Shown: positions 1,337-22,371 of the stretch, one piece after another
Layout: each line of letters opens with the position of its first letter
Numbering within the stretch: the stretch's first letter is position 1
DNA from: Desulfovibrio sp.
Lineage (GTDB): Bacteria; Desulfobacterota; Desulfovibrionia; Desulfovibrionales; Desulfovibrionaceae
DNA length: 32,000 nucleotides
Assembly: GCA_031546885.1 (NCBI GenBank)
Contig: JAVBJS010000017.1
Span: 1,349-33,348 of the forward strand
Direction of reading: 5' to 3'
Translations under genes and position numbers: made by a program
The notes under the pieces: generated by a model
What the model saw: the letters and a program-made list of their open reading frames with translations, nothing else
Told to the model about the DNA's origin: nothing
Database searches by the model: none

Positions 1337-1900
1337 ATGGAAAACAACTCCACGTCGGGTGTTTTTATTCTAGTTTATGACAGGCAAGGAAGGCTCTTCC
1401 AACTTCGGCCAATCGCGGAAAAGCATCTTGCGCAAACACGAATGTGGGCTAATGATTCAGTGTTGCAGCACTGTATGTGCCGCTCTTCCTATGTTTCCGC
1501 AGACGATCAAGGCCGTTGGTTTCAAAAACTGAACGAAGACTCTTCGTGCATTGTTTTTGCCATTGAAGAAGCCAAATCGCAGCGTCATGTGGGCAATACC
1601 GGCCTGTATTCTCTCTCGTGGGAGCATAAACGGGCAGAATTTTGGATCGTACTGGCTCCGGAGGCCCAAGCGCACGGTCTTGGAAGCGCCGTGACGAAGA
1701 GCATGCTGCACTATGCTTTCCGCACCTGCTCTTTGAACCGGGTAGAAGCACTCGTTCGTGTGGATAACCACATTTCCATGCGCCTTTTTCTGCGGTCAGG
1801 CTTTATTCAGGAGGGATTGCTGCGCGAACACCACCAGGTACATGGATATCCTGTTGATATGGTTATACTGTCTTTCCTCGCGCGGCAATTTCGCGAATAG
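1337..1900 (+). CDS. GNAT-family N-acetyltransferase (WecD/PseH-like sugar N-acetyltransferase candidate)
   Basis: Track ORF 1286..1900 begins at a GTG; the first ATG is at 1337 (MENNSTS). The layout is GNAT-like: LRPIAEKHLAQTRMWANDSVL..., HVGNTGLYSLSWEHKRAEFWIVLAPEAQAHGLGSAV, RVEALVRVDNHISMRLFLRSGF. It is the only plus-strand gene inside the island. Confidence 0.75.
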   Translation: MENNSTSGVFILVYDRQGRLFQLRPIAEKHLAQTRMWANDSVLQHCMCRSSYVSADDQGRWFQKLNEDSSCIVFAIEEAKSQRHVGNTGLYSLSWEHKRAEFWIVLAPEAQAHGLGSAVTKSMLHYAFRTCSLNRVEALVRVDNHISMRLFLRSGFIQEGLLREHHQVHGYPVDMVILSFLARQFRE

Positions 1901-1966: not shown

Positions 1967-3085
1967 TTATGAAAAAAGTCGAAACAGGTGTTCGTCATTT
2001 TTTTTCTGCCCGTATGCCGTTGTAATAAATAGCTGCTGACGGGCTTTTTCTTCTTCGGTGAGTGGAGTTAAAAGGGCGGCGGGTGTGAGTTCTTCAAAAT
2101 TTCCTATGCTGTCCAAGCTCTCTTTGTAGCTGCCGAACATGGGGTTTTGGGAGGAAAGAAAAACTTTTTTTCCATAGTACAGAAGCTTTTTAATGGTCAG
2201 CCCCCCGAGATGATAATATCCAGCCATTATTGCTGCTGTTGAATTGCGCAGTAGTGTATTATGCAGTGGCTCTGAGAGTGCTTCCTGCATGGGAATAAAC
2301 GTTTCCCCAAGGTGTTCTTTTCCATATTGCGTAATTGGACAAGTCATGGTGTCCGCACCATATGCCAATTGCGCTACAAAAATAACATCTGAAGGAAATT
2401 TCATGTTTTTGAGCATGTCGATGATATCAATATAATTATTATATATAACTGATGAATTTCCCAACAAAATAATACGGACACTTTTATCGCATATAAAGGA
2501 TAGGTGCTGTGGAAAAGAGTTGTCTTGTTCCGTGGCAGACTGTACAGAAAATGGGAATGAAAAATCATATGTTTTGGGAGTTTCAATTCCAAAATCTGTG
2601 CGGATATCATTTATGCTGTGCGCATCTGAAAGAGTAAACGCATCAACCCGCGCTATGGCTCTGCGCTGTATGTCCGGAATGGATTTCGGAGCAAGCGGAA
2701 CACAGTTCCGCCGCTCGGCCCATGAACTCGTTCGTGGGCCGAGAAGATTATTGAATCGAGAAGCCATGCTCATATATGCGGGTTCAAAAATACCCCAGAT
2801 AACTTCTGGCCCCTTGGGAATAGCTGCCACCCAAGGTGCCAGATTAGGATACAGATTAAACAGAATAATCTTTTTATAGTCAGTGGCAGGCCTGGGAAGT
2901 TGGCTATGCGGCGCTTCCGCAAGCGGAATAAAGGGGATCTGTTCTTCGTGTGCGTCAAGGTGGGTATACTGATTCTTGGAGCGATATGTACAAACGATCT
3001 GGTTCTTGGCGGAGAGGCCGAGTTGTCGTAAGCGCTGTACCATAGACGCGGAAAAAAAATTATCGCCAATGAGCAACAGGTTCAT
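1967..3085 (-). CDS. Putative glycosyltransferase resembling WecF / GT56 (TDP-Fuc4NAc transferase family), tentative
   Basis: 372-aa ORF whose start overlaps the upstream stop by 1 nt. By-eye collinear resemblance to my recollection of E. coli WecF: PEVIWGIFEPAY vs FFWHIWGADLY, RIILLGNSSVIYNNY vs MTILVGNSGDRSNEH, GGLTIKKLLYYGKKVFLSSQNPMF vs [24 protein letters not shown]. No profile search was run. Confidence 0.5.
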   Translation of the reverse strand: MNLLLIGDNFFSASMVQRLRQLGLSAKNQIVCTYRSKNQYTHLDAHEEQIPFIPLAEAPHSQLPRPATDYKKIILFNLYPNLAPWVAAIPKGPEVIWGIFEPAYMSMASRFNNLLGPRTSSWAERRNCVPLAPKSIPDIQRRAIARVDAFTLSDAHSINDIRTDFGIETPKTYDFSFPFSVQSATEQDNSFPQHLSFICDKSVRIILLGNSSVIYNNYIDIIDMLKNMKFPSDVIFVAQLAYGADTMTCPITQYGKEHLGETFIPMQEALSEPLHNTLLRNSTAAIMAGYYHLGGLTIKKLLYYGKKVFLSSQNPMFGSYKESLDSIGNFEELTPAALLTPLTEEEKARQQLFITTAYGQKKNDEHLFRLFS

Positions 3086-4023
3086 CAGGCCTTCTCTTTG
3101 TTAGGTAGATGGAAGTCCGCGTAGGCAGACTGCCAATCCATGCACTGGCGGCATATATCCGGAAGTTTTTCATAGTCGCCACCAAGATGCATGTGTCGGT
3201 AAGAGGCCAGCGGCCCGTTCTGCCATAGTTCTTTCATGCTGTGGCTGAGTACGGAGCCACAGAGAACGCGCCCATGCACATCGACAGCACAGAGGTGTAC
3301 AGAGCCATCGCTGCCCACCACCATTGTGTGCAGCATCCAGTAACAGGGCAGACGGTGCGCCTGTAGAGAGGCATTGAGATTGCCCGCATCTACCAATCCG
3401 CCCCAACTCACTTTCGGGCGGACTTTGACCGCAATGTTGTGCGCGGCCCAGAAGGCTTTAAAGTCTGTGACCTCATGAGCATTATGTTCTGTAGTGATAA
3501 ATTGCACAAAAATTTTTTGTTCCGGCTTGCCTGCCTTTTGCAGTAGTTCGGCGTAAAGCTGGACGTTGCTGATCACGGATGCGAGATTACCGCCGATACG
3601 CATTTTTGCGTATGTTTCCTGTGTAAGCGCATCCACCCCGACATACAGGGCGTCAAGGCCGGCTTCAATATAGGCGCGGGCCTTTTGCTCTGTAATCAAG
3701 GTACCGTTGGAATTTAGTACAACATCTTGTAACCCCTGTTTTTTTGCATAGGCGATACGCTGCGGCATGTCCTGGCACAGAAAAGGTTCACCGAAAAAAA
3801 CAAGCCAGACACGCGACTGTGGACGCTCTGTGGCAATTTCATCAATGAGCCGTGTATAGAGCGCAAAAGGCATGGTTTCAATTTTTCTATATTCCTTAAT
3901 ATGTACATGGTCGCACATTGAGCAACGAAGGTTGCAAGCACTGGTAGAATCGATGCTAATACTATGAGGAAATTCTTTGCAATCTTCAAATACTCTTGTC
4001 CGAAGTGAACTAAATGACGTCAT
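3085..4023 (-). CDS. Radical SAM enzyme with SPASM/twitch-type C-terminal Cys motifs
   Basis: CxxxCxxC motif (CNLRCSMC) near the N-terminus. C-terminal C-x13(G)-x4-C (CYWMLHTMVVGSDGSVHLC) followed by CRQC. I chose the start at ATG 4023 (MTSFSS); 4044 or 4125 are also possible. It overlaps the upstream gene by 14 nt. Confidence 0.85.
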   Translation of the reverse strand: MTSFSSLRTRVFEDCKEFPHSISIDSTSACNLRCSMCDHVHIKEYRKIETMPFALYTRLIDEIATERPQSRVWLVFFGEPFLCQDMPQRIAYAKKQGLQDVVLNSNGTLITEQKARAYIEAGLDALYVGVDALTQETYAKMRIGGNLASVISNVQLYAELLQKAGKPEQKIFVQFITTEHNAHEVTDFKAFWAAHNIAVKVRPKVSWGGLVDAGNLNASLQAHRLPCYWMLHTMVVGSDGSVHLCAVDVHGRVLCGSVLSHSMKELWQNGPLASYRHMHLGGDYEKLPDICRQCMDWQSAYADFHLPNKEKA

Positions 4024-5065
4024 CACATTTCCCTTGGCTACCATCACTATCTTGAATGATCTTCCAAAAATTATAGTTCCAGGAACGGTATGCGCGATCT
4101 GGACAATTGTTGCAGGGCGGAACATCGTGCGCCATCCCCTTGAGGTGGAGCTCGCGAGCGTGCTGATACACTTTCCCTGACCAAATTTCTTGAAGCGTAT
4201 GCTCTGTTAAGGAGCCTGCCGAGTACGTATTATATCGGTCAACACCGCAAAAATTCACTTCGCCCCGAGGAGTAACCATGGTTCGCTCAAACAGCAGCGG
4301 GCACGGAATATTTTCTTCCGGCGGCAGATAGGGCGTAGGGTCTGCGGACTGCCCTGGGTCATTCACTCGCCACGTCAAAAATTTACGCACCTGCACAACA
4401 TCGGCATACGGCTCCCAATATTGCTTCGCCTGCTCCACATCGACATTGGCCTGGTTAATAATGCTGCAAATAATCCGCGTGCCGCTTTTGTGTTTTTCCC
4501 GCAGTTCCATCGCCATTTGTACATTCTCGTTCAGCTTGCGCCAATCCAGGCCGGCCCGGGCATAGGCATAGTCTATGGGGTTGCCCGCATCCACACTGAA
4601 TTCAAGGGTGTCGACTCCCGCAAGGATCAAACGCTCCAGCTTGGTCCGGTCATAGCACGAACCGTTGCTGATGACGCCCAGCTTGCAGCCCTGGCTTTTG
4701 GCGTACTCGAACAGCTCCATGGCCTGGGGGTGGAGCAGTGGCTCGCCCCCTCCGGTGATGCGCAAAAAGCTGTTATGCTTGCCGGTTTCATCCGCCAGTT
4801 TTTTGAACAGTTCCGTCGGCATAAACGGCACATCGGCAAAATGCTTCCTGACATCCCCAGCGGTAAACGCGCAATTGGGGCAGCGGGCGTTGCATACATA
4901 GCTAAAGGCCACAATAACCATAAGGGGAAATATTTCGGCCCCAGGGCGCATTCCATACTTTTCCCAGGTATGACAAATAGGAGTATTATTCATGCTATCT
5001 CTCTGCATGTGTAAAGCATGCATATCTGTTACAGGATGACGGTCAAACCTCGGGGCAAAAGTCAA
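4010..5065 (-). CDS. Radical SAM enzyme with SPASM/twitch-type C-terminal Cys motifs (paralog of 3085-4023)
   Basis: CNARCPNC motif, GGGEPLL glycine-rich SAM motif, C-terminal CPLLFERTMVTPRGEVNFC plus CNNC. ATGA overlap with the upstream aminotransferase. Confidence 0.85.
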   Translation of the reverse strand: MTFAPRFDRHPVTDMHALHMQRDSMNNTPICHTWEKYGMRPGAEIFPLMVIVAFSYVCNARCPNCAFTAGDVRKHFADVPFMPTELFKKLADETGKHNSFLRITGGGEPLLHPQAMELFEYAKSQGCKLGVISNGSCYDRTKLERLILAGVDTLEFSVDAGNPIDYAYARAGLDWRKLNENVQMAMELREKHKSGTRIICSIINQANVDVEQAKQYWEPYADVVQVRKFLTWRVNDPGQSADPTPYLPPEENIPCPLLFERTMVTPRGEVNFCGVDRYNTYSAGSLTEHTLQEIWSGKVYQHARELHLKGMAHDVPPCNNCPDRAYRSWNYNFWKIIQDSDGSQGKCDDVI

Positions 5066-6186
5066 AAACTCTTTACGACTTCTCTAAGGGCGGCAATTAC
5101 GGCGTTCTGCTCTTCATCGCGCAAGCCGGGGTACAGCGGGAGCGAGAGCGTGCGCTTGCCGATAGATGCGGCCACAGGGGTATCGTCTTCCCTGAATCCC
5201 TGTGCCCGGAAAAAGTTCAATTCCGGTAGTGCGCGATAGTTGACTGCAACGCCGATACCCCGCTGCTGCAAAGCCGACAGGACGGCATCACGTTGGGTAG
5301 CATCAACCCATACGGTCTGCAAGTGCCGGGCGCTGACGCTGTTTGGCGGAACTACCGGCGCGGCAAGGCTCAGGCGAGCAAGTACCTCTTCATACCGTTT
5401 GCAGAGGACTTCTCTCCGCTCCCGTTTTTCTTTGATCTGCGGTATCTGCGGGAGCAAAAGAGATGCCCGCAGGTTGTCTAGATTGTACTTCCAGCCTAAT
5501 TCAAGCATGTCCCAATGTTGGTAGGCCTTGCCGTACCGATCATAGGCATTGCGATCTATGCCGTGGCAGGAGAGTCTGCGCACCCGGGCGACCAGTTCCG
5601 CGTTGTTACTGGCCAGCATGCCCCCCTCGCCGCAGGTGACGTTCTTTGTCGCATAAAAGGAAAAACAGGCGCTGTCGCCAAGTTCGCCAGGACTGTAGCC
5701 ATCACGGGAACCCTCAAGACAGTGCGCGGCGTCTTCGATAAGGGCAAGGTCATACCGATCCGCCAGATCTCGCAGCATGCGCATATCACACATCGCTCCG
5801 TAAAGGTGCACGGGCAGAATGGCTTTGGTGTGCGACGTCACTGCGGCTTCTACCAGCGAGGCGTCCAGATTGCCTGTGTCCGGCTCCACATCCACAAATA
5901 CCGGTCGCCCGCCCGCCATGAATATGGCATTGGCCGTGGCAACGAAGGTCAGCGGGGTCGTGATAACCTCATCCCCAGGTCCGATTCCGGCGGCAAGCAG
6001 GGCAAGATGCAGGGCGGCTGTGCAGGAATCCAGAGCCACAGCATGTTGCAATCCCAGAAAAGTTGCAAAAGTGGCTTCAGCCTCCTGCACATAGTTGCCG
6101 GTGGTCAAAATGGGGCCAGCCAGCACTTGCGCAATGCGGGAGGCGCACTCAGGGCCAAGCTGATGCCGATAAAAGGGGACATGCAT
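5062..6186 (-). CDS. DegT/DnrJ/EryC1/StrS-family PLP sugar aminotransferase
   Basis: Family-typical sequence: HVPFYRHQLG..., ALDSCTAALHLALLAAGIGPGDEVITTPLTF, DAAHCLEG, FSFYATKNVTCGEGG (Lys for the PLP Schiff base). I chose the start at ATG 6186 (MHVPF), giving a 1-nt overlap with the rfbB stop. The track start at 6258 would lie inside rfbB. Confidence 0.9.
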   Translation of the reverse strand: MHVPFYRHQLGPECASRIAQVLAGPILTTGNYVQEAEATFATFLGLQHAVALDSCTAALHLALLAAGIGPGDEVITTPLTFVATANAIFMAGGRPVFVDVEPDTGNLDASLVEAAVTSHTKAILPVHLYGAMCDMRMLRDLADRYDLALIEDAAHCLEGSRDGYSPGELGDSACFSFYATKNVTCGEGGMLASNNAELVARVRRLSCHGIDRNAYDRYGKAYQHWDMLELGWKYNLDNLRASLLLPQIPQIKEKRERREVLCKRYEEVLARLSLAAPVVPPNSVSARHLQTVWVDATQRDAVLSALQQRGIGVAVNYRALPELNFFRAQGFREDDTPVAASIGKRTLSLPLYPGLRDEEQNAVIAALREVVKSF

Positions 6187-7235
6187 TAGTGAAGCTCCTT
6201 GTTTCCCTCTGAAGTAATGATGGGAATCTCGTGCATCCAGCATTGGGCCTGCCACCACTCTTGGTGGGTTGTATACCAGTCAATGGTGGCAGGCAGCCCT
6301 TCTTCCCAGGATATTTGAGGTTCCCAGCCCAGGGCGCGGTGAATTTTTTCCCAGTTGCAGGTATGGCGGATGACCTGACCCGGTCGATCGCCCACGAAGG
6401 TCCGGGCATTGGTCTTGTCCGGGCAAAGACGGGTACAAATGTCCTCGGCAATGGAAAGAATGTCCCGCTCCTGCCCGCTGCCGATGTTAAACGTTTCACC
6501 AATCACAGCGTCCTGCGGGGCATGAAGAATCAAATCCAGGGCCCGGCAAGTGTCCTGCACATGCACAAAATCGCGCGCGCTCCGGCCGTTTCCGTGTATG
6601 CGCATGGGAATGCCGAGTACGGCATTGGTAATGAAGCGGGGAACAAGTTTTTCCAAATGTTGGCGCGGCCCGTAATTATTGAAAGGGCGGACGATAACGG
6701 CGGGAATGTGGTAGGTCTGCCAATACGCGAACACAAGCCTGTCTGCGCCGCATTTTGCAGCGGCGTAGGGGCTCATCGGCATGAGGGGATGCTGTTCGTC
6801 CATGGCCGGGTACTGAGCGGAGCCGTACACTTCCGAGGTGGAGATATGAATGAACCGGCGAATGCGATTCCTGTTACTTAGTACCGCGTTGGCCAATACC
6901 TGGGTGCCCAGCACATCCGTACGGAAAAATTCGCTGCTGTCATAAATGGAGCGGGTCACATGGCTTTCAGCGGCGAAATGGACAACCATATCCGCCCGTG
7001 CCGTCAGATCGTTCACCAATTGGGCGTTGAGGATATTCCCATACCAGAACTCCAGCTGAGGGTGATCTCGCAGGGCGTTATAAGCCTCAGGCAAGTTTGC
7101 GACATTACCCGCATAGGTCAGGGCGTCAAGAATGAGGATTTTATACTGAGGATAGTGTTCATACATATAATGGACAAAATTGGAGCCTATGAATCCGGCT
7201 CCTCCTGTCACAAGTATATTTTTTTGGTGGCGCAT
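6186..7235 (-). CDS. rfbB: dTDP-glucose 4,6-dehydratase
   Basis: ILVTGGAGFIGSNFV Rossmann motif, LDALTYAGN, HFAAESHVTRS, STSEVYG and YAAAKCGADRL (YxxxK). Length is typical of RmlB/RfbB. Confidence 0.9.
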   Translation of the reverse strand: MRHQKNILVTGGAGFIGSNFVHYMYEHYPQYKILILDALTYAGNVANLPEAYNALRDHPQLEFWYGNILNAQLVNDLTARADMVVHFAAESHVTRSIYDSSEFFRTDVLGTQVLANAVLSNRNRIRRFIHISTSEVYGSAQYPAMDEQHPLMPMSPYAAAKCGADRLVFAYWQTYHIPAVIVRPFNNYGPRQHLEKLVPRFITNAVLGIPMRIHGNGRSARDFVHVQDTCRALDLILHAPQDAVIGETFNIGSGQERDILSIAEDICTRLCPDKTNARTFVGDRPGQVIRHTCNWEKIHRALGWEPQISWEEGLPATIDWYTTHQEWWQAQCWMHEIPIITSEGNKELH

Positions 7236-7266: not shown

Positions 7267-8004
7267 TTATATACCAGACAACTCCCCCGCAATGAAGTCT
7301 TTTGCCTGCGGGCCGCAATTGAATAGCAGATCCAGCGCCGAAAGGTAAGGAGCAAAGGTGCCGTGCAACTGGGGATATTCGCGTGGCAGGTACGCTTGAA
7401 ACATAAGGTCAATCCCGTGTGCCGCAAACAACTTACGGTCGATATAGTTCTTGCCTGCCGCTCCTTCGTAAAAACATGTTCCTCCAAGGGCGGTGACAAT
7501 ATTGATCAGCCGCTCGTTCTTTCCGCCGTGAACCCCCAGTTGCGAAGAGCGAACAAGAGGGGTGCGGATATCAAAGGATTGACACATCCATTCCAAAATT
7601 GCGATAGTTAAATCGCTTAAAAAGCTCCAGGGCTGATCCAAAATGGCAAAAAAGTCCGGTGCATACTGGGAGAACCAAAGGCTTTTTTTGTAGCTCTGCT
7701 CTAATGTAGCCCTATGTTTTTTTTTCCATTTTGCGGCATCCGCGCAAATAGAAATGCTGTTGAGCCTCTGTTCTGCACAAGCCATTGATGCATGCACGGG
7801 AACAGTCAACCAGCGGACTCCCTGATCTGTTTTTATTCTGTTTCTATTACGCCACCCATGCTTATCAAATGGCACGTCATCATAGAAAACGAAAACATCA
7901 GCACGGGCAATCTGCTCAAAATATCCAATCCATGGGATGTAACTTGGTTGCAAAATACCGATTGTTTTTGCGTTTATTCGTAACGCTGCGTGGTTTTTAA
8001 TCAT
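7267..8004 (-). CDS. WbqC-family protein (glycan-cluster protein of unclear function)
   Basis: IGILQPSYIPWIGYFEQIARADVFVFYDDVPFDKHGWRNRNRI is the characteristic WbqC-like N-terminus. The track start at 8028 is a TTG; the first ATG is 8004. Confidence 0.75.
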   Translation of the reverse strand: MIKNHAALRINAKTIGILQPSYIPWIGYFEQIARADVFVFYDDVPFDKHGWRNRNRIKTDQGVRWLTVPVHASMACAEQRLNSISICADAAKWKKKHRATLEQSYKKSLWFSQYAPDFFAILDQPWSFLSDLTIAILEWMCQSFDIRTPLVRSSQLGVHGGKNERLINIVTALGGTCFYEGAAGKNYIDRKLFAAHGIDLMFQAYLPREYPQLHGTFAPYLSALDLLFNCGPQAKDFIAGELSGI

Positions 8005-8458: not shown

Positions 8459-9628
8459 TCACCAAGCATAAAAGACCATTTCAGCCATAAACGGATAGCT
8501 GGTCGCAAAACCCAGTTTGTAGGATGGTTCGATTTGCAGAATTTTTTCAGGCACAGCCACGAGGTCTTTATTGCTGTTGTGGTATCCGGAAATCATGAGT
8601 CGCGGCTTCCATCTTCGCAGCGTGCGCGTGGCTCCGCACAGACATGAAACTTCCGCTCCTTCAATGTCCAATTTCAACACATCCACACGGGATAAATCCC
8701 GTTCTTCAACAAAACTGTCCAAGTCCGTGACTTGGCATGGCGCAGTATCTGCTGTGGAGAACTCACGGAGGCAAGAACTTCCTTGCTTGAGAAAAAGGGG
8801 CATGCTCTGTTGTTTGGAAAAAAGTCCTTGGGGTATGAGCTCCACAACATCCGACCAGGGTGATTTAGTAAGCTCCGCGGCTGCCATAACAAAATTCTCT
8901 TGATTAGGCTCAAAGCCATAAACTTTACCGAAAGGGCCGACGGCATCGGCAAAATGTGCCACTTCGTATAGCCTGGAAGCTATTCCGCCATCTATCACAA
9001 TATCGCCTGGTTGGGGCCAAGTGGCAGGGTGCCGGTAATGCCTGAACGGGGCAAGCTGGATGTAGCCGATATTTCCGGTAATCATCGCTTTGATTGTACC
9101 TGCAAAAGAGGCTTTGCTTTCCTGGTCGTAAAGATTGGAATACACCCACTCCAATGCCGCAGCATGTTTTGAAAAAAAATCTGCATCCTGGCGCGTGCAA
9201 GATGCATCGCTTCGCCGTTCAGGATACATGAAAATATCTTTTCTGTGTTGCAAGACGTGGAACAGAAGAGAGCCAAACAAGGGTTGCTGAAATTCTTTTT
9301 CCCGCTGCATAAAATAGACTAATATATCTGCTTCAGGAGATTCTGCAATGGCGGAAAGAGGTATGATAGGGGCTGGAGGCCGATGAATGCTGTCTGCCAA
9401 AGCGGCAGCACTCTCCGGGTTTATGCATTGGGGAAAGATTACAATGCCCGCCAATGTTGCGTGAGGAGCTTGCTGCGAAATGTATGACAGGGCCGTATCC
9501 AGTTCGGGCAGGCCGACAACGAGTAAAACTCGTTGAGTGCCGGCGTCAAGGCCAAAAGAGACAGACGATTGGCACACGGTAAGGTGCGCTTTCAGAGATG
9601 GGCATTTGTGGGGGTATGTATAGTGCAT
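8459..9628 (-). CDS. FkbM-family SAM methyltransferase with a roughly 190-aa N-terminal domain of unknown function
   Basis: C-terminal half: VIDGGIASRLYEVAHFADAVGPFGKVYGFEPNQENF ... VDVLKLDIEGAEVSCL ... RLMISGYH (FkbM signature). Collinear paralog of 15601-16773. Confidence 0.8.
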   Translation of the reverse strand: MHYTYPHKCPSLKAHLTVCQSSVSFGLDAGTQRVLLVVGLPELDTALSYISQQAPHATLAGIVIFPQCINPESAAALADSIHRPPAPIIPLSAIAESPEADILVYFMQREKEFQQPLFGSLLFHVLQHRKDIFMYPERRSDASCTRQDADFFSKHAAALEWVYSNLYDQESKASFAGTIKAMITGNIGYIQLAPFRHYRHPATWPQPGDIVIDGGIASRLYEVAHFADAVGPFGKVYGFEPNQENFVMAAAELTKSPWSDVVELIPQGLFSKQQSMPLFLKQGSSCLREFSTADTAPCQVTDLDSFVEERDLSRVDVLKLDIEGAEVSCLCGATRTLRRWKPRLMISGYHNSNKDLVAVPEKILQIEPSYKLGFATSYPFMAEMVFYAW

Positions 9629-11983: not shown

Positions 11984-12880
11984 TCACCCACCTGGACTGA
12001 TGCATCGTTTGCAAATAAAGTTTTCATCTGAGGCGCACTCTCCGGTGATTTTATCAGCCAAGCTCAAAAATTCGCTGCCCTTCAATATTTCGTGCAGGCC
12101 TGCCTTAGTGATATCGCCAAAAACAGTTTCCCGCTGGTAGTCCATACAGCAAAGTATGAGTTCACCCGTGTAAAGAAAATGTAGCCAATCCGTAACACGT
12201 ACACAGGAAAATCCCGTCAGGTCGGGCCGCACATTTTCCACCGTGTGAATATCATTGCGGTGGATGCTGCGTGCTCTGTCGTGGTAGGTAAAAAAGTGAA
12301 TGCTGTGTTTTTTTGTGATGCCGTTTTGTTGAAAAATTTCATTCCAAAAGCACAGATATTCTTCCTTGGAGAAAGAAAAATCGTGCTTAAGCTCAGGCAC
12401 TCTTCCTTCGCCCGCCCCATGAATGCGTATGGTCAGGGGGTGAGACTCTGCTTCTTTCAGCAAGTGAATAATATTACTCAAGCATTGCTCAAAGGGGATG
12501 CCCATGATTCCTTCAAAACTGCGCTTGTCAATGCCGTGAAAACTAAGCCAGATGTCATGCGGCCCCCCCTGCAAGGCAGCAATGAGCTTACGCGCTGCGG
12601 CTTTATCCAAAGCCAGAGCATTGGTGGAAACTTCAATAAGCACCGCTGGAAATGCTTCGCGAATCATTACGATGCGCTCAAATATTTGAGGATCGGCCAG
12701 CGGCTCATTTTCCAGATACGGGCAAATTTTTCTGATAGGCAGCGGCTTGAGCTCTCCCAGAATGCGTCGGAAAACCTGATCTGTCATGCGCCCAGGATTT
12801 TTTTTGTGCCAACTTTCCGGGTATGGGCACATTATGCAGCTGCCCGTGCAGACAGATGTAGTTTGAATTTGTATGTTCAT
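11984..12880 (-). CDS. Radical SAM enzyme with SPASM/twitch-type C-terminal Cys motifs (third paralog)
   Basis: CTGSCIMC eleven residues from the N-terminus. C-terminal CVRVTDWLHFLYTGELILC (C-x13(G)-x4-C) and CKRC. ATGA overlap with the upstream methyltransferase. Confidence 0.85.
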   Translation of the reverse strand: MNIQIQTTSVCTGSCIMCPYPESWHKKNPGRMTDQVFRRILGELKPLPIRKICPYLENEPLADPQIFERIVMIREAFPAVLIEVSTNALALDKAAARKLIAALQGGPHDIWLSFHGIDKRSFEGIMGIPFEQCLSNIIHLLKEAESHPLTIRIHGAGEGRVPELKHDFSFSKEEYLCFWNEIFQQNGITKKHSIHFFTYHDRARSIHRNDIHTVENVRPDLTGFSCVRVTDWLHFLYTGELILCCMDYQRETVFGDITKAGLHEILKGSEFLSLADKITGECASDENFICKRCISPGG

Positions 12881-13723: not shown

Positions 13724-15592
13724 TTAAAATAAAGAATTGTAGTCTGTTCGTTCAAATATGGTGAGATCTCCACCAATGGAGGCATTATGTATTTTTCTTC
13801 CTGCCGCTTCAAATGTTTCTCGTGCAAGTTTAAAATTACGCTCAACATGATAAAGCTGCGGATCATGCCATATTTTATTTTTAAAGTACTCAGGATGAAA
13901 GTGATTTGGATCGTCCTGCTCCGAGCATATTTGGTTCCCAGTAATATGCGCTCCAGAGGGGATAACATAGCGGTGATCCATTCCAATCAAGTACACTTCA
14001 CGGCACCCCAGCCAATAGGCCAGTTGCATATTAGTATAGGATATTGTGTGCCCGCTATATGATCTTTCCGCAAAGCATGTGGAAAAATGAGGTTGATGAT
14101 ACAGAGGTGAACTTTGACTGTAAAAACCTAAATTCAAGCGAAACCAATAGGAGTTGCTCCTATTGCTAATGCTGTCCCAATATTTGGTTGGAATGACGCG
14201 AGTGGCGACGGTATAAGCGTTAATAGCCGCAACATTCGCTTTAACAAATTCTGGGTCTTCCACAGTATAGAACGTGGGGATAAACCCTGTTTCTTCTGTT
14301 TTATAAAATATTCCATTACATGCGATGGTTATATCATCCTGTAGCAGACTAAGGTCATGCAAATTAAGAGACGGCCCGTTCCCTATAATAAAACAGCGCC
14401 TGTTGGCGTACAAGTTTTTCAAAGGCAACAGATCATTCCCATCAATAGGCCAAGGGCCGGGCTCTTCAAAGGTGCCCTGTTTCTCAGTTTTGGCAGACCT
14501 GCTGCCTTCAGCTTTTGCCGATGGGCAAACAGAAATGTGTGACTCTGACAACGTTATTTTTTCAAGCTCATGACGGAGCAGAAGATTCTCTTCTTTCAGA
14601 AGCCGTATTGTTTCTTCATGTTGCAAACGCAAGTACTTTTGTCTATCAAAAAAATGTAGTGCTTGCTGATACGCCACCAACATTGTTTTTGCCAAAGAAT
14701 CTAGGCTTACATTTTTCGTAGATGCAGCCAGCAAAGCAGCCAGATCCTCATCTGGAGATTCTGGCAAAGCGTCTGTGGCCATTGTGCGGAGGTTGCTGTA
14801 GAGTCGCGCTAAAAAACTTGTCTTCATTCGCTCTATCAGTTCATCCGGTACACCCTTTGTCCTGGCATAGGGGAGAAATTCCCTGAGCATCAACCCCATG
14901 GCTTCCACGGTTTCGGCTTTTTCACGCGATGCATTGTTGCACCAGTGGTGCCCATAAGCCATATGTTCAGTGCCTGCGTAACGGGTAGCATGTAGCAGAT
15001 AATGCGAAACCAGCAGTAAATCTTCCCGCCAGTGGCGTACTCCACTTGCTTGTGCACCCTCAAGTATTTTGAGCCACAGATCTCGCGAATACAGTTTGTT
15101 GTAAACGACATGCGCCCGCATGTCGGCATGTACGTAGGTAGAAAAAATATCGGGAGCTAGGAGGCGATCGTTGTAGGGGTGCGCCCATATCCATTCTCCC
15201 CGAAAACTGTGATCTTCGCCCAACATGGCAATGGGAAAATGAACAACATCGGCTTGCTCGTGCAGCATCACTTCTATATTTTTCGCCAACTCCTGTGTTC
15301 CCCACAGAATATCGTCAGCGTCCGCAAAAGCGATAATGCCCCCCCGTGCCTCTTTAATGCCAGTAAGGCGAGCATTTTTTGTGTATTGCCTGGTCGTATG
15401 TTCAATACATCGAATATTCAACCCTTTATCCAAATATTCAATAATAATATCCATGCAATGTTCATCAGAGGCATCATCAACAACGATAACTTCCATAGAA
15501 TGCACGTCTTGCGCAAGAATACTGTCAAGCAGACGCGGCAAAAGGTGCTTATGGTTATAATTGGCAATAACAATAGTAATTATTGGTGGCAT
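13724..15592 (-). CDS. Bifunctional glycosyltransferase: N-terminal GT2 domain, coiled-coil linker, C-terminal DUF115 (MptE-like / Maf-type) domain
   Basis: N-terminus: ITIVIANYNHKHLLPRLLDSILAQ...VIVVDDASDE...AFADADD. Linker: LRLQHEETIRLLKEENLLLRHELEKI. C-terminus: RRCFIIGNGPSLNLHDLSLLQDDITIACNG ... QLAYWLGCREVYLIGMDH. The GNGPSL box and the G-x-D box are the hallmarks I associate with DUF115/motility-accessory-factor and sialyltransferase-like proteins. Confidence 0.8.
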   Translation of the reverse strand: MPPIITIVIANYNHKHLLPRLLDSILAQDVHSMEVIVVDDASDEHCMDIIIEYLDKGLNIRCIEHTTRQYTKNARLTGIKEARGGIIAFADADDILWGTQELAKNIEVMLHEQADVVHFPIAMLGEDHSFRGEWIWAHPYNDRLLAPDIFSTYVHADMRAHVVYNKLYSRDLWLKILEGAQASGVRHWREDLLLVSHYLLHATRYAGTEHMAYGHHWCNNASREKAETVEAMGLMLREFLPYARTKGVPDELIERMKTSFLARLYSNLRTMATDALPESPDEDLAALLAASTKNVSLDSLAKTMLVAYQQALHFFDRQKYLRLQHEETIRLLKEENLLLRHELEKITLSESHISVCPSAKAEGSRSAKTEKQGTFEEPGPWPIDGNDLLPLKNLYANRRCFIIGNGPSLNLHDLSLLQDDITIACNGIFYKTEETGFIPTFYTVEDPEFVKANVAAINAYTVATRVIPTKYWDSISNRSNSYWFRLNLGFYSQSSPLYHQPHFSTCFAERSYSGHTISYTNMQLAYWLGCREVYLIGMDHRYVIPSGAHITGNQICSEQDDPNHFHPEYFKNKIWHDPQLYHVERNFKLARETFEAAGRKIHNASIGGDLTIFERTDYNSLF

Positions 15593-15600
15593 GGGATATT

Positions 15601-16773
15601 CTATGGCTCCACAATTGCATAAATAACAGTTTCACTAAAGTTGGGGAAATGATTCAATAGATATAATTTATATTCTGGAACATATTGTTTTATTATTCCA
15701 GGGAGATGAAGAAGATCCTGGTAAGAATTGTGATACGTGGAAATCATGAGTCTTGGCTTCCATTTCCGCAGGGTTTGTTGCGCTCCATGCAGGCACTCTG
15801 CTTCTGATCCTTCAATGTCGAGCTTAATAACATCAATTCGGGGAATGTTATGCTCACGCACGAATGAGTCTACATCAATCAGGCGGCATGTTGCTGTATT
15901 TTCGTTTTGCTGACTAACTACGCGAGAGCCACCAGCATTTGCGGTGATATGGGCTGAACCTTGCACGGAAGACAGGCCAAAGTTTTGCAGAGAAATAAGA
16001 TCTTTTAACTCACAATTACTGTGCTCTTTTATAAGCTGTTGAAAAAAAGATGGCTCTGGTTCAAAAGCGTACACTTTACCATTTGGTGCGGCAGCCTGCG
16101 CAAAGGCAACGACCTCGAGCAATCGTTCCGATATCCCCCCATCAATGACGATATCGCCCTGGCGTATCCAAGTCAGAGGAAATCTGTAGTTACGGTGTGT
16201 TGGCAGCTTAATAAAGCCGGGATCACCGGTAATGATTCCTTTGATCATTGAGGCCATGGCCGCTTTGCTTTCTGCATCAGAAAAAGCTTCGTATGAATAT
16301 TCCAGCTTACGAGAGTTATTGCGAAAAAAATCAGGTTGGGGATGTGTATACCAGAGAGTATTAGGAATTTCTGGATATATAGCGAAACTCTCTACAATCC
16401 CTGCAAGGGTTCGAATGGCGGCAAAATGATTGTTTGAGGCCTGCGGTGAAGCGGGATCTTCAAGATATACAAGCACGCGAGCGTCTGGATAGTCTATAAT
16501 ATCTTCATAATCAAGTACAGGAATAATAAATTTTCCAGCATCGGACTCTATATGTACAGCGGGAATGACAGCTTTCTTGCAGTCTGGAAACAGAATAATT
16601 CCACAAATTTTTACGTCATGGCATGTTGAACCAATATAAGAGATGGCCTCAGCTACAGCATTTTTTGATGTAACCAGCAAGACGTTCTTTGTATATTTAC
16701 TTAACCCACGCGATATATAAAGTGGGCACTTCAATAGTTGTTCTCTAAGTGTTCCGGCAACGTTTGTTTGCAT
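15601..16773 (-). CDS. FkbM-family SAM methyltransferase with a roughly 190-aa N-terminal domain of unknown function (paralog of 8459-9628)
   Basis: VIDGGISERLLEVVAFAQAAAPNGKVYAFEPEPSFF ... IDVIKLDIEGSEAECL ... RLMISTYH. The track start at 16827 is a TTG. ATG 16773 (MQTNVAG) gives an N-terminus collinear with the paralog. Confidence 0.8.
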   Translation of the reverse strand: MQTNVAGTLREQLLKCPLYISRGLSKYTKNVLLVTSKNAVAEAISYIGSTCHDVKICGIILFPDCKKAVIPAVHIESDAGKFIIPVLDYEDIIDYPDARVLVYLEDPASPQASNNHFAAIRTLAGIVESFAIYPEIPNTLWYTHPQPDFFRNNSRKLEYSYEAFSDAESKAAMASMIKGIITGDPGFIKLPTHRNYRFPLTWIRQGDIVIDGGISERLLEVVAFAQAAAPNGKVYAFEPEPSFFQQLIKEHSNCELKDLISLQNFGLSSVQGSAHITANAGGSRVVSQQNENTATCRLIDVDSFVREHNIPRIDVIKLDIEGSEAECLHGAQQTLRKWKPRLMISTYHNSYQDLLHLPGIIKQYVPEYKLYLLNHFPNFSETVIYAIVEP

Positions 16774-16843
16774 CAAATTATCCAGGTAAAAAAAACATAT
16801 GTAAAAGCTAATCCTCCCTAGCCACAAATACGCCTTTGTATAT

Positions 16844-17812
16844 TTATAATTGCAGAGATTTTATGGTATCTCTTACAACTTCTGCGTTGAGTGCAGTGGC
16901 AACAATCATGGCTTTAGTAAGTGTTTTTTTGTCAAAAAGCCGTAGGGCCTCTTTAAATAGGAGCCCTTGTGGATCAAAACCTTCCGACGCTGCAAGAGAG
17001 AGCCTCCCTGCGGCAACGCGCAATATTTTCAGGTACTTTTCCGAGAAAAGACGCAGTGTTTCCTCTGAGCAGCCCTGCTTTGCATAGTAGGGTAACACTT
17101 CTTCCAGCATGAGATAGGCATAAATGGTTCGCTCCGCCGTGTCTTGATTTCGCTTGCTGACGAAGCGGTAACCGTAGCCAACGTGCTCGCTCCCCGCGTA
17201 TTTGCGCGCATGGAAAAGAAAAAGGGGTGTCAAGTACGTATCTTCCGCATATCGGTAAAACCTGGTCTTCCAGGCCGTGTCAAGAACTTCCAGCCACTTC
17301 GCACGGGAATACAGTTTGTTCCAAACGACATCGCTTGCGTATGGCGTGCGCAGATAGGTGGTAAAGATATTTTCATTGCAGCCAGCAGGCATAAAAGGGT
17401 TGCCAAAATTAAAGTAAGAAGTAAAATCCCCGTGCGCATCGATTATCCCCGAGCGAAATTGCAGCACATCCAAATCGTTGTCGATAAATTGTCTTACGTG
17501 CTTTTCCAGCACCTCGGTACCCCATAGCAGGTCATCGGCATCCGCAAAGGCTATAATATCCGCCGTACTTGCTTTTATTCCAGCCAGTCGCGCGTTCTTG
17601 GTATATAACCGCTGAGGTGCGGTGATAAAGCGTATATTCAGCCCCTTGCTTCTGTAGGCTTCCAGCACATCAGTATAGGGGATGTCAGAATAGTCGTCTG
17701 ACACTACCACTTCCACCTCTCGCAGGGTCTGTGCTAGGATACTATCGAACAACATAGGCAGTGCATGCCCATGATTTCGGTTCGGAATAATTATGGAAAT
17801 AAGCGGCTTCAT
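16844..17812 (-). CDS. Family-2 glycosyltransferase
   Basis: LISIIIPNRNHGHALPMLFDSILAQTLREVEVVVSDDYSD ... IIAFADADDLLWG. Close paralog of 18506-19495 and of the N-terminal domain of 13724-15592. Confidence 0.85.
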   Translation of the reverse strand: MKPLISIIIPNRNHGHALPMLFDSILAQTLREVEVVVSDDYSDIPYTDVLEAYRSKGLNIRFITAPQRLYTKNARLAGIKASTADIIAFADADDLLWGTEVLEKHVRQFIDNDLDVLQFRSGIIDAHGDFTSYFNFGNPFMPAGCNENIFTTYLRTPYASDVVWNKLYSRAKWLEVLDTAWKTRFYRYAEDTYLTPLFLFHARKYAGSEHVGYGYRFVSKRNQDTAERTIYAYLMLEEVLPYYAKQGCSEETLRLFSEKYLKILRVAAGRLSLAASEGFDPQGLLFKEALRLFDKKTLTKAMIVATALNAEVVRDTIKSLQL

Positions 17813-18501
17813 ATAGGACTTCCTTCTGGAAACGCTTGCCAGGCAACCTCCGCCAAGCGGAAATCATCTTCTGTGTCGATATCCAGAGATTCTAGCCTGG
17901 ACATAGGGAAAAGATAAGGTGCTTTCCCTATTCTATTATGCCCATTTTGAAAAAATGATGCGGCTGAGAAGACATAGAGACAACTGTTTTCTTCATATAG
18001 CGGGGCAAGATCCTGGGTGTTCAGCAGGACTGCTGGGTCATGATTTAGCGGAGTAAAATCCGTCTTATAAAAACGGCTCTGATAGGAGAGCACAGAAAAA
18101 AGGGAGTCATAGTTATCCAGCCCATACATATAAGAGCTGATAGCGTTGGCAACAGTACCCGCCCGCAGCATCGGGTTAGTCACATGAGTTTGCAAATAAT
18201 GTCCTTCCCCTAAAAGTTGCAGGTCATAGGCGATAATGCTGTTCATGGAAATAGTATGTCCGCATAAATGCTGCGGACGCTCGTGTATTACAACCTTATC
18301 GTACTGCCTTGCGAGTTTTTCAACAGTACTGCTATCGGTATTAACAACAATGCTGCTGATACATGCTGTGAGCTGCAAGGTTGCCAACACTCGGCATAGC
18401 AATGGCTGTCCGCAGAAATTACGTGTGTTTTTCCCGTGAACCCGTTCCGAGGAGCCTTTAATCGGCACAAGTGCGGAAATTGATGTATGATTCATTTGCA
18501 C
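17809..18501 (-). CDS. Acylneuraminate cytidylyltransferase-family CMP-sugar synthetase
   Basis: ISALVPIKGSSERVHGKNTRNFCGQPLL (the P-x-K-G-S-x-R-x-x-x-KN box of the NeuA/KdsB-like family) and C-terminal LDIDTEDDFRLAE. Confidence 0.8.
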   Translation of the reverse strand: MQMNHTSISALVPIKGSSERVHGKNTRNFCGQPLLCRVLATLQLTACISSIVVNTDSSTVEKLARQYDKVVIHERPQHLCGHTISMNSIIAYDLQLLGEGHYLQTHVTNPMLRAGTVANAISSYMYGLDNYDSLFSVLSYQSRFYKTDFTPLNHDPAVLLNTQDLAPLYEENSCLYVFSAASFFQNGHNRIGKAPYLFPMSRLESLDIDTEDDFRLAEVAWQAFPEGSPI

Positions 18502-19516: not shown

Positions 19517-20200
19517 TTATTTATAAACAGATACTGTACCATTGTCGTGATCAATATTGGTGTCAACACTTAACGCCGGGTTTCCGGCCATAATCTTGTT
19601 GTCACGACACCCCTTATATAGGAAAGCGCCAGGCGCAATTATATTGCCACTGCCGATTCGCGCATTTGCCAATATGACGGAGCGTACCCCAAGGCTATTT
19701 TGCGACCCTATCTGCACATTACCCAATACCAGGCTGAACGGGCCAAAAAAATTTGCGTCACCTACGGTAACATCGTGTCCAATAGTTACTGAGCCATTCA
19801 TATAATTTGCATTGCCAATGACTGTATTGCAGGAAATATATGTCGCACAAGCAAATATATTGGCTTCGCCAATGATTGCTCCAGGCAATATAGTCGTGAC
19901 TGGGTGGATTAACGTAAGAAATTCTACACCTTTTGCCTTCCATTTGTGAAAAGCCTTTGCCCGTAGTGCAGGTAAGCCCAGGCCAAGTACAAAGATGTCA
20001 TTCTGATTCGATGTATACTCGTCATCGATGCCCAATTGCAAATGGGCCAGCTCATGCAGCTCACCAGCGTGCCCTTCAAAGGACAGGAATCCCTTAAAAG
20101 CAAGATCCTTTCGTTGCCGCATGACTTCACACAGTAGCCAATAGCACTCGCGCGCCGCTCCCGCATTCCCAATGATAAGCACATTTCGCATACCGCTCAT
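19517..20200 (-). CDS. NeuD/PglD-family hexapeptide-repeat sugar N/O-acyltransferase
   Basis: N-terminal Rossmann-like VLIIGNAGAARE followed by left-handed beta-helix hexapeptide repeats (IGEANIFACATYISCNTVIGNANYMNGSVTIGHDVTVGDANFFG...). ATGA overlap with the SDR gene. Confidence 0.8.
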   Translation of the reverse strand: MSGMRNVLIIGNAGAARECYWLLCEVMRQRKDLAFKGFLSFEGHAGELHELAHLQLGIDDEYTSNQNDIFVLGLGLPALRAKAFHKWKAKGVEFLTLIHPVTTILPGAIIGEANIFACATYISCNTVIGNANYMNGSVTIGHDVTVGDANFFGPFSLVLGNVQIGSQNSLGVRSVILANARIGSGNIIAPGAFLYKGCRDNKIMAGNPALSVDTNIDHDNGTVSVYK

Positions 20201-21176: not shown

Positions 21177-21201
21177 AATTCTTTCCACTGTAATAAACAT
21201 A

Positions 21202-22365: not shown

Positions 22366-22371
22366 ATACTC

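Follow-up and report, generated by a model that had tools for sequence, protein, structure and literature searches.

The paired radical SAM proteins of Desulfovibrio sp. that we call rSAM-A and rSAM-B are well supported, on the sequence-based evidence presented here, as tailoring enzymes whose substrate is not a peptide but an activated amino-sugar destined for a surface or flagellar glycan. We favor this reading because the neighbors of the two genes belong to sugar pathways, because BtrN is their best solved relative and because natural fusions with sugar N-acyltransferases exist. The same observations support the original prediction of radical SAM chemistry on an NDP-4-amino-4,6-dideoxyhexose. 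The twitch-type pair belongs to a conserved module of seven nucleotide-sugar genes, found in mostly anaerobic bacteria. Our analysis considered a 32,000-nucleotide stretch of contig JAVBJS010000017.1, referred to below as the window, and the genomic setting of the two genes resembles an island for glycosylation of flagellin or of the cell surface.

rSAM-B (called gene P0001) lies at 3085..4023 on the minus strand and encodes a 312-residue radical SAM protein of predicted twitch type, while its 327-residue paralog rSAM-A (called product P0121) lies at 4010..4993 on the same strand. The SAM-cluster motif reads CNLRCSMC in rSAM-B (3936..3913, minus strand) and CNARCPNC in rSAM-A (4894..4871, minus strand), followed in each protein by a C-terminal PC-x12-G-x4-C...C-x2-C motif. 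With 28% identity over 286 residues (BLASTP, E 3e-28) and family profiles that align at a probability of 100% (hhalign, E 4.5e-38), the two proteins are, as judged from these alignments, paralogs. The original prediction also had stop and start codons overlapping along the operon, and this should be considered junction by junction. The rfbB/degT junction is a TAATG overlap (ATG at 6186, with GGAG 9 nt upstream), rSAM-A ends 14 nt into rSAM-B (ATG at 4023, with AAGGG upstream) and a TGATG overlap joins the rSAM-B stop to the start of the following glycosyltransferase gene. An overlap between degT and rSAM-A, on the other hand, needs the TTG at 5065 with which the longest open reading frame would start. 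As the called product and the N-termini of homologs favor the ATG at 4993, which leaves a 69-nt gap after degT, this overlap is improbable.

Both proteins match the Pfam models Radical_SAM (PF04055) and SPASM above the gathering scores, with E values of 4e-18 and 2.6e-9 for rSAM-B and of 3.6e-14 and 2e-10 for rSAM-A. Together with the CxxxCxxC motif and a predicted fold that matches radical SAM structures, this places them in the radical SAM superfamily, and the tandem paralogs that had been predicted are borne out by Pfam, motifs, BLASTP and profile alignment alike. A twitch domain is a shortened SPASM domain, with three to four cysteines for one auxiliary cluster. The auxiliary-cluster cysteines are C227, C245, C291 and C294 in rSAM-B (within 3345..3142, minus strand) and C231, C249, C294 and C297 in rSAM-A (within 4303..4103, minus strand); all 120 homologs of the respective family retain these four. 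Among the 120 top homologs per family, at least 119 keep all seven cluster cysteines, a motif that is not due to chance. A full SPASM domain has seven to eight C-terminal cysteines, arranged as C-x9-15-G-x4-C, C-x2-C-x5-C-x3-C and a final C, and binds two auxiliary clusters (PMC10452713). Despite the Pfam match, rSAM-A has only four conserved C-terminal cysteines, and the window's rSAM-B, which has C255 besides its four, lacks the C-x2-C-x5-C-x3-C block. The four cysteines of each protein align with the twitch domain of BtrN, whose fold rSAM-B is predicted to share at a TM score of 0.81. The C-terminal domain of both proteins is thus assigned as a BtrN-type twitch domain with a single predicted auxiliary cluster, such that the predicted auxiliary signature stands as to its conserved cysteines and not as to its SPASM type. 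No curated NCBIfam model reaches its cutoff for either protein, including the twitch subfamily model NF033640 (63 bits, where 170 are required), and no description of the pair was found in curated families or in the literature searched.

The genes around the pair encode what a route to an NDP-4-amino-4,6-dideoxyhexose calls for, namely, an RmlB-type dehydratase, a DegT-type C4 transaminase and an N-acyltransferase. The dehydratase gene (rfbB; 6186..7235, minus strand) scores 348 bits against the TIGR01181 cutoff of 365, and all ten PDB matches listed at E ≤ 1e-40 are dTDP-glucose 4,6-dehydratases (best E 6e-83). It carries the motif STSEVYG where RmlB has STDEVYG, with Ser replacing the catalytic Asp, a motif that was compared across the subfamily of the module; no RmlA gene is found within the window. 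The DegT-family PLP aminotransferase (5062..6186, minus strand; Pfam DegT_DnrJ_EryC1, E 1e-106) has as its nearest solved relatives ArnB (E 1e-70) and perosamine synthetase (E 6e-65), both of which are C4 aminotransferases; its predicted role is the amination of a 4-keto sugar nucleotide at C4. The WbqC-family protein (7267..8004, minus strand; called product P0241, 245 residues; Pfam PF08889, E 4e-75) yields an AF2 model with a pLDDT of 92 and no PDB fold match. The glycosyltransferase at 1967..3085 (minus strand) is WecF-like in its C-terminal half (NCBIfam NF002756, E 2e-15, residues 204-369), WecF being the TDP-Fuc4NAc:lipid II transferase, and a 33% identical homolog lies beside the DegT gene of the module in Maridesulfovibrio (locus L057), with WbqC and rSAM-A nearby. 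Convergent with the operon, at 1337..1900 on the plus strand, is a PseH-like GNAT N-acetyltransferase gene (TIGR03585, E 1e-15), the product of which is 36-43% identical to the GNAT encoded directly before rSAM-B in most of the 21 GNAT-bearing loci described below and is, from this resemblance, assigned as the N-acyltransferase of the module. No peptidase, exporter or precursor-like family was found among the Pfam-annotated open reading frames of the island, in agreement with what had first been noted. A third, distant radical SAM gene of the island, rSAM-C (11984..12880, minus strand; Pfam Radical_SAM and SPASM), is flanked by FkbM methyltransferases outside the conserved module; its product has a SPASM/twitch-type C-terminal domain (CxxxCxxC plus C...C...CxxC), shares 16% identity with rSAM-B and finds BtrN as its sole PDB sequence match (E 3e-4).

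BtrN, the 2-deoxy-scyllo-inosamine dehydrogenase of butirosin synthesis (PDB 4M7T), is the best PDB match of both family profiles (E 1.3e-13 for rSAM-B and 1.2e-14, twitch domain included, for rSAM-A), and the twitch-region cysteines of both families align with its auxiliary-cluster ligands, with an identity of only 17-18%. It is also the top fold match (4m7t) of the AF2 model of rSAM-B (pLDDT 83). BtrN shares with the pair a compact radical SAM core, a C-terminal twitch domain and four auxiliary cysteines in the same order (C...G-x4-C...CxxC), its substrate has a carbinol beside an amine and a DegT-family aminotransferase acts in its pathway. It differs in that its substrate is a free aminocyclitol of antibiotic synthesis, whereas a nucleotide sugar in a surface-glycan locus is proposed here, and in that rSAM-A and rSAM-B are 40-60 residues longer, are paired and have WbqC and AsnB-like partners. 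DesII (TDP-4-amino-4,6-dideoxy-D-glucose deaminase of desosamine synthesis; PDB 8HZV/8HZY), the precedent on which the original prediction leaned alongside BtrN, takes substrates of exactly the class proposed here, once a 4,6-dehydratase and then a C4 aminotransferase have acted, and is the second-best fold match of rSAM-B. It is, however, much larger (about 490 residues), its sequence matches are marginal and limited to rSAM-A (E 0.0056-0.0058), and the NCBIfam matches include no DesII model. The profile searches returned a Pfam SPASM match and BtrN, membership in the DesII family was not found, and BtrN is the better analog of the two.

SpeY, BlsE and AbmM are among the sequence and fold matches of the pair, ranking in the rSAM-B fold comparison after SuiB, MoaA, SkfB and anSME. 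These enzymes, along with HygY and NeoN, are twitch radical SAM proteins that act on carbohydrates (dehydrogenation, epimerization, decarboxylation and sulfur insertion), yet their similarity to the pair is low and all come from actinomycete secondary-metabolite clusters; we know of none from an O-antigen or flagellin-type locus whose substrate is an NDP-hexose. At the level of the pathway, the Arn (L-Ara4N) route bears resemblance, as many related loci combine an ArnB-like C4 aminotransferase with a formyltransferase (or GNAT) and carry a GT2 with weak similarity to ArnC and other polyprenyl-phosphate glycosyltransferases; an LPG_synthase_TM protein is sometimes present as well. Where the Arn route has the ArnA oxidative decarboxylase, a 4,6-dehydratase is found here, the module adds two radical SAM enzymes, WbqC and an AsnB-like amidotransferase, and the window has a WecF-like glycosyltransferase in place of an ArnC-like one.

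To follow the module across genomes, we surveyed what lies beside rSAM-B in 50 non-redundant loci, which represent more than ten phyla; at E ≤ 1e-30, a profile search yielded 1,267 cluster representatives. The most frequent neighbor is an AsnB-like amidotransferase (37 of 50 loci), followed by rSAM-A (33), WbqC (29), an RmlB-like 4,6-dehydratase (26) and an ArnB/Per-like DegT C4 aminotransferase (25). An N-acyltransferase is encoded in 31 loci (a GNAT in 21 or a formyltransferase in 10) and an ArnC-like GT2 in 20. Where full 10-kb flanks were available, 21 of 25 loci encode at least one of WbqC, the dehydratase and the aminotransferase; a single locus of the 50 (L048) has no glycan genes nearby. 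The module is found in Desulfovibrionaceae, Geobacterales, Negativicutes, Nitrospirota, Planctomycetota, Omnitrophota and CPR bacteria, among others, and in Trichlorobacter lovleyi forms a tight operon in the order AsnB, rSAM, GNAT, rSAM, WbqC, dehydratase and DegT. GNAT, formyl-, hexapeptide- and small-GNAT transferases interchange at the same place in the module, and natural fusions join a GNAT to rSAM-A (P0218), an rSAM-B-like protein to a GNAT (P0371) and a NeuD/PglB/VioB-type acetyltransferase to an rSAM-B-like protein (P0505). It had been asked whether homologs consistently adjoin RiPP precursors rather than sugar genes: the homologs of more than ten phyla adjoin sugar genes, all recurrent neighbor families belong to sugar pathways, and a RiPP or peptide-maturation context was found in none of the 50 loci. 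The dehydratase, aminotransferase, radical SAM gene order, which had been likened to the DesIV/DesI/DesII logic, is not conserved, as the radical SAM genes of other genomes come before the WbqC, dehydratase and aminotransferase genes, and DesII is a weak analog.

We propose, with somewhat better than even confidence, that rSAM-A and rSAM-B are cytoplasmic BtrN-like twitch enzymes that would tailor a nucleotide-activated 4-amino(acylamido)-4,6-dideoxyhexose. From homology, the RmlB-like dehydratase would make an NDP-4-keto-6-deoxyhexose, which the ArnB/Per-like transaminase would aminate at C4, and the conserved linkage and the fusions suggest that the GNAT of the module would acylate the resulting amine. 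SAM would then be reductively cleaved at the CxxxCxxC cluster of each radical SAM enzyme, and the 5'-deoxyadenosyl radical would take a ring hydrogen. Our favored guess is a BtrN-like abstraction from the carbinol C-H beside the nitrogen-bearing carbon, most likely C3-H, in which the ketyl radical would pass its electron to the four-cysteine auxiliary cluster to give a keto-sugar. The paralog would perform a second radical step at another position. That two paralogs perform two radical steps is plausible from the gene content, and the steps would be separable, since each family also occurs without the other (loci L005, L006 and L020; locus L057). WbqC and the WecF-like glycosyltransferase would finally complete and transfer the sugar. 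As the AsnB-like enzyme needs a carboxylate or amide substrate, simple dehydrogenation leaves this partner unexplained. That rSAM-A, rSAM-B and WbqC, with the AsnB-like enzyme in most genomes, form an undescribed pathway from an NDP-4-amino-6-deoxyhexose to a sugar new to glycobiology is a tentative proposal, to which we give slightly less than an even chance, and its chemistry might go beyond simple oxidation, for example, to two ring positions or to a new carbon or amide function.

Several other chemistries should be considered. The two proteins could be radical SAM epimerases that remove a ring hydrogen, after which a hydrogen would be returned to the opposite face, with two paralogs inverting two stereocenters of the NDP-4-amino-6-deoxyhexose. 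We regard this as unlikely, though it is the most probable of the alternatives: epimerases of the twitch/SPASM type are known for sugars (NeoN/HygY) and for peptides (EpeE), EpeE is among the rSAM-B fold matches and no external electron acceptor would be necessary. Moreover, most rSAM-B homologs have two or three cysteines that BtrN lacks (C237, C251 and C255), and the near-invariant C237 (118 of 120) and C251 (117 of 120) could donate the hydrogen. However, the rSAM-B of the window retains C255 and has Gly at both position 237 and position 251, and a subclade with Thr or Ala at these positions keeps the same neighborhood. The rSAM-A family, with exactly four C-terminal cysteines in 120 of 120 homologs, has no conserved cysteine beyond the seven cluster ligands, though a Tyr might serve as the donor.

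Slightly less probable is a new chemistry, in which the sugar would be joined through a C-C bond to a small carboxylate co-substrate bound at the auxiliary cluster, or the N-acyl group would be worked upon, with the new carboxyl group then being amidated by the AsnB-like enzyme. This would give the most frequent neighbor a substrate, as a plain 4-acylamido-6-deoxyhexose has no carboxylate; the fusions with N-acyltransferases also point this way, and the extra cysteines of most rSAM-B proteins might form a further cluster site. Against this, the AsnB-like amidotransferase is absent from the window, although both radical SAM genes are present, and no conserved gene supplies a co-substrate. The acyltransferase types, furthermore, replace one another at the same place, and the acyl group is therefore unlikely to be the radical target.

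A DesII-like lyase, by which one of the enzymes would convert the NDP-4-amino-4,6-dideoxyhexose by deamination into a 3-keto-4,6-dideoxy sugar, or would remove water from a vicinal diol, with the deoxygenated sugar reduced afterward, appears improbable. DesII acts on exactly such substrates, and in several WbqC-less loci a short-chain reductase (SDR) gene directly follows the radical SAM gene, as in AprD4/AprD3; oxidation/reduction and dehydration/reduction fit this arrangement equally. Yet AprD4 belongs to the B12-domain radical SAM class (NF033070 match), and not to the twitch class, and DesII is only a marginal match in sequence (E 0.006). To our knowledge, DesII has no auxiliary cluster, whereas four auxiliary cysteines are invariant here. 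The conserved N-acyltransferase, the usually single aminotransferase and the likeness of the window's glycosyltransferase to a Fuc4NAc transferase indicate that the C4 nitrogen is retained, and N-acylation would disfavor a DesII-type loss of the amine.

Very improbable is that the two are RiPP or anSME-like maturases that merely reside in a glycan locus: SPASM maturases (AlbA, PqqE, anSME, MftC) do share the Pfam SPASM match, the C-x9-15-G-x4-C half-motif and the later CxxC, and many weak NCBIfam matches fall on peptide maturase families, but all of these stay below cutoff, the maturases have seven to eight cysteines and two auxiliary clusters where rSAM-A has strictly four cysteines and the window's rSAM-B four BtrN-equivalent ones, peptide substrate genes and a maturase context are absent from the surveyed loci, and BtrN is the best match by both structure and profile.

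The known radical SAM chemistry on sugars comes almost entirely from antibiotic pathways (BtrN, DesII, SpeY, BlsE). If true, the tailoring reaction proposed here would be the first such chemistry known to us in the synthesis of cell-surface or flagellar glycan precursors, as opposed to antibiotics. A SPASM match with only four C-terminal cysteines, when encoded beside dehydratase and aminotransferase genes, should accordingly not be annotated as a peptide maturase. If confirmed, our reading would provide functions for two large families annotated only as "radical SAM/SPASM protein", a handle on the WbqC family and a new oxygen-independent route by which mostly anaerobic bacteria diversify the sugars of their surface glycans.

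According to Pfam and NCBIfam annotation, the minus strand of the window carries, in order of transcription, a WbqC-family gene (8004..7267), an RmlB-like 4,6-dehydratase gene (rfbB; 7235..6186), a DegT-family aminotransferase gene (degT; 6186..5062), two radical SAM genes referred to here as rSAM-A (4993..4010, with the longest ORF starting from TTG 5065) and rSAM-B (4023..3085), and a glycosyltransferase gene with a WecF-like C-terminal half (3085..1967). A PseH-like GNAT gene on the plus strand (1337..1900) is convergent with these genes. TAATG is common to the rfbB/degT junction, with GGAG upstream, while the rSAM-A stop and the rSAM-B start overlap by 14 nt, preceded by AAGGG, and TGATG is common to the rSAM-B stop and the glycosyltransferase start. 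The overlapping junctions of the original prediction thus hold for rfbB/degT but not for degT/rSAM-A, where overlap requires the TTG start, as ATG 4993 gives a 69-nt gap. The called rSAM-A product (P0121, 327 aa) starts from ATG 4993, with which the N-termini of its homologs are consistent. Promoter and terminator scans gave nothing above shuffle expectation.

Both rSAM-A and rSAM-B match the Radical_SAM and SPASM Pfam models above threshold. The two proteins are 28% identical (E 3e-28) and hhalign of their family profiles gives a probability of 100%, such that the pair represents real tandem paralogs, as had been proposed. The proposed SPASM-type signature, in contrast, was not retained. Invariant cysteines, read from alignments of 26 and of 120 homologs per family, are C34, C38 and C41 plus exactly four in the C-terminal part (C231, C249, C294 and C297) in rSAM-A, and C30, C34 and C37 plus C227, C245, C291 and C294 in rSAM-B, the C-terminal pattern in both families being C-x12-G-x4-C...C-x2-C. 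A C-x2-C-x5-C-x3-C block is absent from all of these alignments. As a SPASM domain is defined by 7-8 cysteines and two auxiliary clusters and the truncated twitch form by 3-4 cysteines and one cluster (PMC10452713), the four C-terminal cysteines place both proteins in the twitch type. Additional cysteines are common among the 120 rSAM-B homologs (C237 in 118, C251 in 117 and C255 in 109), with the window rSAM-B having Gly at both 237 and 251. Thr or Ala occupies these two positions in a more distant rSAM-B subclade (L047-L051) whose gene neighbourhood is the same, so the extra cysteines should be considered dispensable for the shared role of the family. Loss of C237/C251 was also considered in relation to the absence of an AsnB-like gene, and this link was rejected, as the subclade lacking those cysteines keeps AsnB.

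BtrN, an aminocyclitol radical SAM dehydrogenase (PDB 4m7t), is the closest solved relative of the pair. In single-sequence searches it was the best PDB-chain match of rSAM-B (E 1e-11, covering the core and the C-terminal domain), while rSAM-A matched SpeY (7wzv), BlsE and, weakly, DesII, a TDP-amino-sugar deaminase. When family profiles were used, BtrN ranked top for both (E 1.3e-13 and 1.2e-14), and as the profile alignment spans the twitch domain, the four cysteines line up with the auxiliary-cluster ligands of BtrN. The AF2 model of rSAM-B (pLDDT 83, pTM 0.85) likewise had BtrN as its best fold match (E 4e-13, TM 0.81 on BtrN, rmsd 3.6 Å), followed by DesII, SuiB, MoaA, SkfB, anSME, SpeY, BlsE and AbmM. 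The best analogue is BtrN and not DesII, which is weak by sequence and comes after BtrN by fold; the original emphasis on DesII is corrected accordingly.

Searches detected 645 homologs for rSAM-B and 784 for rSAM-A, and 1,267 relatives at E <= 1e-30 were obtained when 1.84 billion cluster representatives were searched by profile. The best 120 homologs per family show 46-59% identity, measure about 305-345 aa and have generic names only. For the window proteins and homologs, no NCBIfam model reached its cutoff, with spiro-SPASM, tungsten-cofactor maturase, MoaA and others remaining sub-threshold; both families are thus uncurated and without an assignable family name. They are also not described in the literature searched in full text, where WbqC appears only in passing mentions or as unrelated uses of the string.

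The neighbouring genes point to the substrate. The ten best solved relatives of the window dehydratase are all dTDP-glucose 4,6-dehydratases (best E 6e-83). Where RmlB has STDEVYG, the window enzyme has STSEVYG, as do most module dehydratases, and S(T/S)SEVYG is found in 22 among the long members of the dehydratase ORF cluster (cluster 2) from related loci. GDP-mannose dehydratase likewise has Ser in place of the catalytic Asp of RmlB. As no RmlA gene is found near the window dehydratase, the nucleotide carrier of the pathway is uncertain, although it is probably dTDP. Among solved proteins, the DegT aminotransferase is nearest to ArnB (E 1e-70) and perosamine synthetase, two enzymes that place an amino group on C4 of 4-keto sugar nucleotides, and the glycosyltransferase downstream of rSAM-B resembles WecF, a TDP-Fuc4NAc transferase. 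Read from these gene relationships, the substrate would most simply be an NDP-4-amino or 4-acylamido-4,6-dideoxyhexose, whose nucleotide and stereochemistry we infer.

One genome was scanned per species, with loci annotated by tblastn with the window proteins and by clustering of all ORFs, which gave 52 loci in Bacteroidota, Negativicutes (Sporomusa ovata), Thermodesulfobacteriota, Planctomycetota, Lentisphaerota, Omnitrophota, Nitrospirota, Nitrospinota, Chloroflexota, one CPR bacterium and others. Together with contigs encoding homologs, these yielded 50 non-redundant loci for rSAM-B, of which many lie on short contigs. Neighbours of rSAM-B include an AsnB-like glutamine amidotransferase (37/50), rSAM-A (33/50), WbqC (29/50), the RmlB-like dehydratase (26/50, 50-64% identical), DegT (25/50, 47-56% identical), a PseH-like GNAT (21/50), a GT2 with weak similarity to polyprenyl-phosphate glycosyltransferases such as ArnC (20/50) and a formyltransferase (10/50). 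Complete 10-kb flanks were available for 25 loci, and WbqC, the dehydratase or the aminotransferase was present in 21 of these. The commonest order is AsnB, N-acyltransferase, rSAM-B, rSAM-A, (GT2), WbqC, dehydratase and aminotransferase; the window order differs and is thus a rearrangement. In Trichlorobacter lovleyi (CP058409.1, near 3.43 Mb), AsnB, rSAM, GNAT, rSAM, WbqC, dehydratase and DegT are tightly packed. Fundidesulfovibrio agrisoli SG106 is a further cultured carrier. The AsnB-like protein (L001-L053, L058) is TIGR01536-positive with a Cys2 nucleophile, and is absent from the window. One locus (L048), in which the module genes are absent and the neighbours, on reading the sequences, resemble NirK and a NirJ-like radical SAM protein, was set aside as an outlier. 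No peptide-maturation context was seen in any of the 50 rSAM-B loci, in agreement with what had been noted for the window.

The WbqC protein itself has no relative in a PDB sequence search, and its AF2 model (pLDDT 92, pTM 0.88) found no match in the PDB by Foldseek (best TM 0.24), such that, judged from the model, it may represent a fold without a solved representative. Many aromatic and basic residues are invariant in the WbqC-family alignment (A4), including a WRNRN motif.

The radical SAM step is linked to amino-sugar N-acylation by three naturally occurring fusion proteins. P0218 joins a GNAT to an rSAM-A that is 49% identical, P0371 is rSAM-B-like and has a GNAT at its C-terminus, and P0505 joins a sugar N-acetyltransferase of the NeuD/PglB/VioB type to an rSAM-B-like protein. 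Two further proteins, P0418 (784 aa) and P0469 (795 aa), were rejected as fusions of rSAM-A and rSAM-B, being too distant (about 23% identity). In each, a single chain comprises two units that are both complete with radical SAM and SPASM/twitch parts, from which it can be seen that tandem paralog pairs of the superfamily can become single proteins.

Considering motifs, fold, family relationships, linkage and fusions, the interpretation that the radical SAM pair tailors a sugar is well supported. By analogy to BtrN, rSAM-A and rSAM-B would each cleave SAM and abstract a ring hydrogen, with the auxiliary cluster taking the second electron to give a keto sugar; the favoured site would be C3-H, adjoining the C4 nitrogen. 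Four kinds of N-acyltransferase (PseH-like GNAT, small GNAT, formyltransferase and hexapeptide transferase) interchange in the module, which speaks for the acyl group serving as a handle or protecting group and against its being the radical target. In several genomes, that of the cultured Sporomusa ovata DSM 2662 included, rSAM-B is found without rSAM-A, and one Maridesulfovibrio genome has rSAM-A (56% identical) without rSAM-B, together with WbqC, dehydratase, DegT and a WecF-like glycosyltransferase. As the families thus occur apart, their steps are separable and the two proteins are not obliged to form a heterodimer.

Alternatively, the enzymes could be lyases of the DesII or dehydratase type whose product is then reduced, a reduction for which the extended SDR (~300 aa) encoded directly after the rSAM gene in WbqC-less loci (L031, L036, L039, L041, L042 and L046) could account; N-acylation at C4, on the other hand, would suppress amine elimination, the reaction of DesII on the free amine. 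These loci, from Nitrospirota, Nitrospinota, Omnitrophota and Planctomycetota, often also contain an ATP-grasp ligase, a hexapeptide transferase and AsnB, and their SDR may replace WbqC non-orthologously or belong to a variant pathway. Carbon-carbon or other new chemistry is another alternative, and would account for the AsnB-like enzyme. Finally, rSAM-A and rSAM-B could act as epimerases.

The module lies within a glycan island of ~23 kb. A third radical SAM gene, rSAM-C (11984..12880, minus strand, 298 aa), has FkbM-type methyltransferases on both sides, 16% identity to rSAM-B, BtrN as its sole PDB sequence match (E 3e-4) and a CxxxCxxC motif with a C...C...CxxC C-terminal pattern, bringing to three the radical SAM genes of the island whose C-terminal domain is of SPASM/twitch type. 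Also encoded in the island are three methyltransferases of the FkbM type and two of class I. Two of the FkbM-domain proteins (8459..9628 and 15601..16827, both minus strand) are paralogs (39% identical, E 5e-84) with N-terminal extensions of ~200 aa, and the three paralogous GT2 genes (13724.., 16844.. and 18506..) have similar N-terminal starts by eye, which suggests internal duplication of a glycosyltransferase-methyltransferase unit. A minus-strand cassette (19517..23511) encodes a hexapeptide acyltransferase, a FabG-like SDR, a KAS-III-like condensing enzyme and a second DegT aminotransferase; it resembles a pathway in which an amino sugar receives a short (hydroxy)acyl chain on its nitrogen. 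Further along, a 424-aa protein (24334..25608, plus strand) has a long repeat region rich in Pro, Gln, Met and Ala and a TPR at its C-terminus. Tandem repeats in the DNA lie at 24660..24779 and 24937..25066 (periods of 42 and 45 nt), and the next protein (25707..26651) has an AMIN domain and a linker rich in Pro and Lys.

MurJ, FliJ (28518..28958) and TruA genes lie beyond the island. One of the three GT2 genes encodes a 622-aa protein (13724..15592, minus strand) in which an N-terminal GT2 is fused to a C-terminal MptE/Maf-like domain (PF01973), the family to which flagellin glycosyltransferases belong. This protein, FliJ and a CMP-sugar-type cytidylyltransferase (17809..18501) suggest a flagellin glycosylation island, and the island likely serves glycosylation of flagellin or of other proteins or the cell surface.
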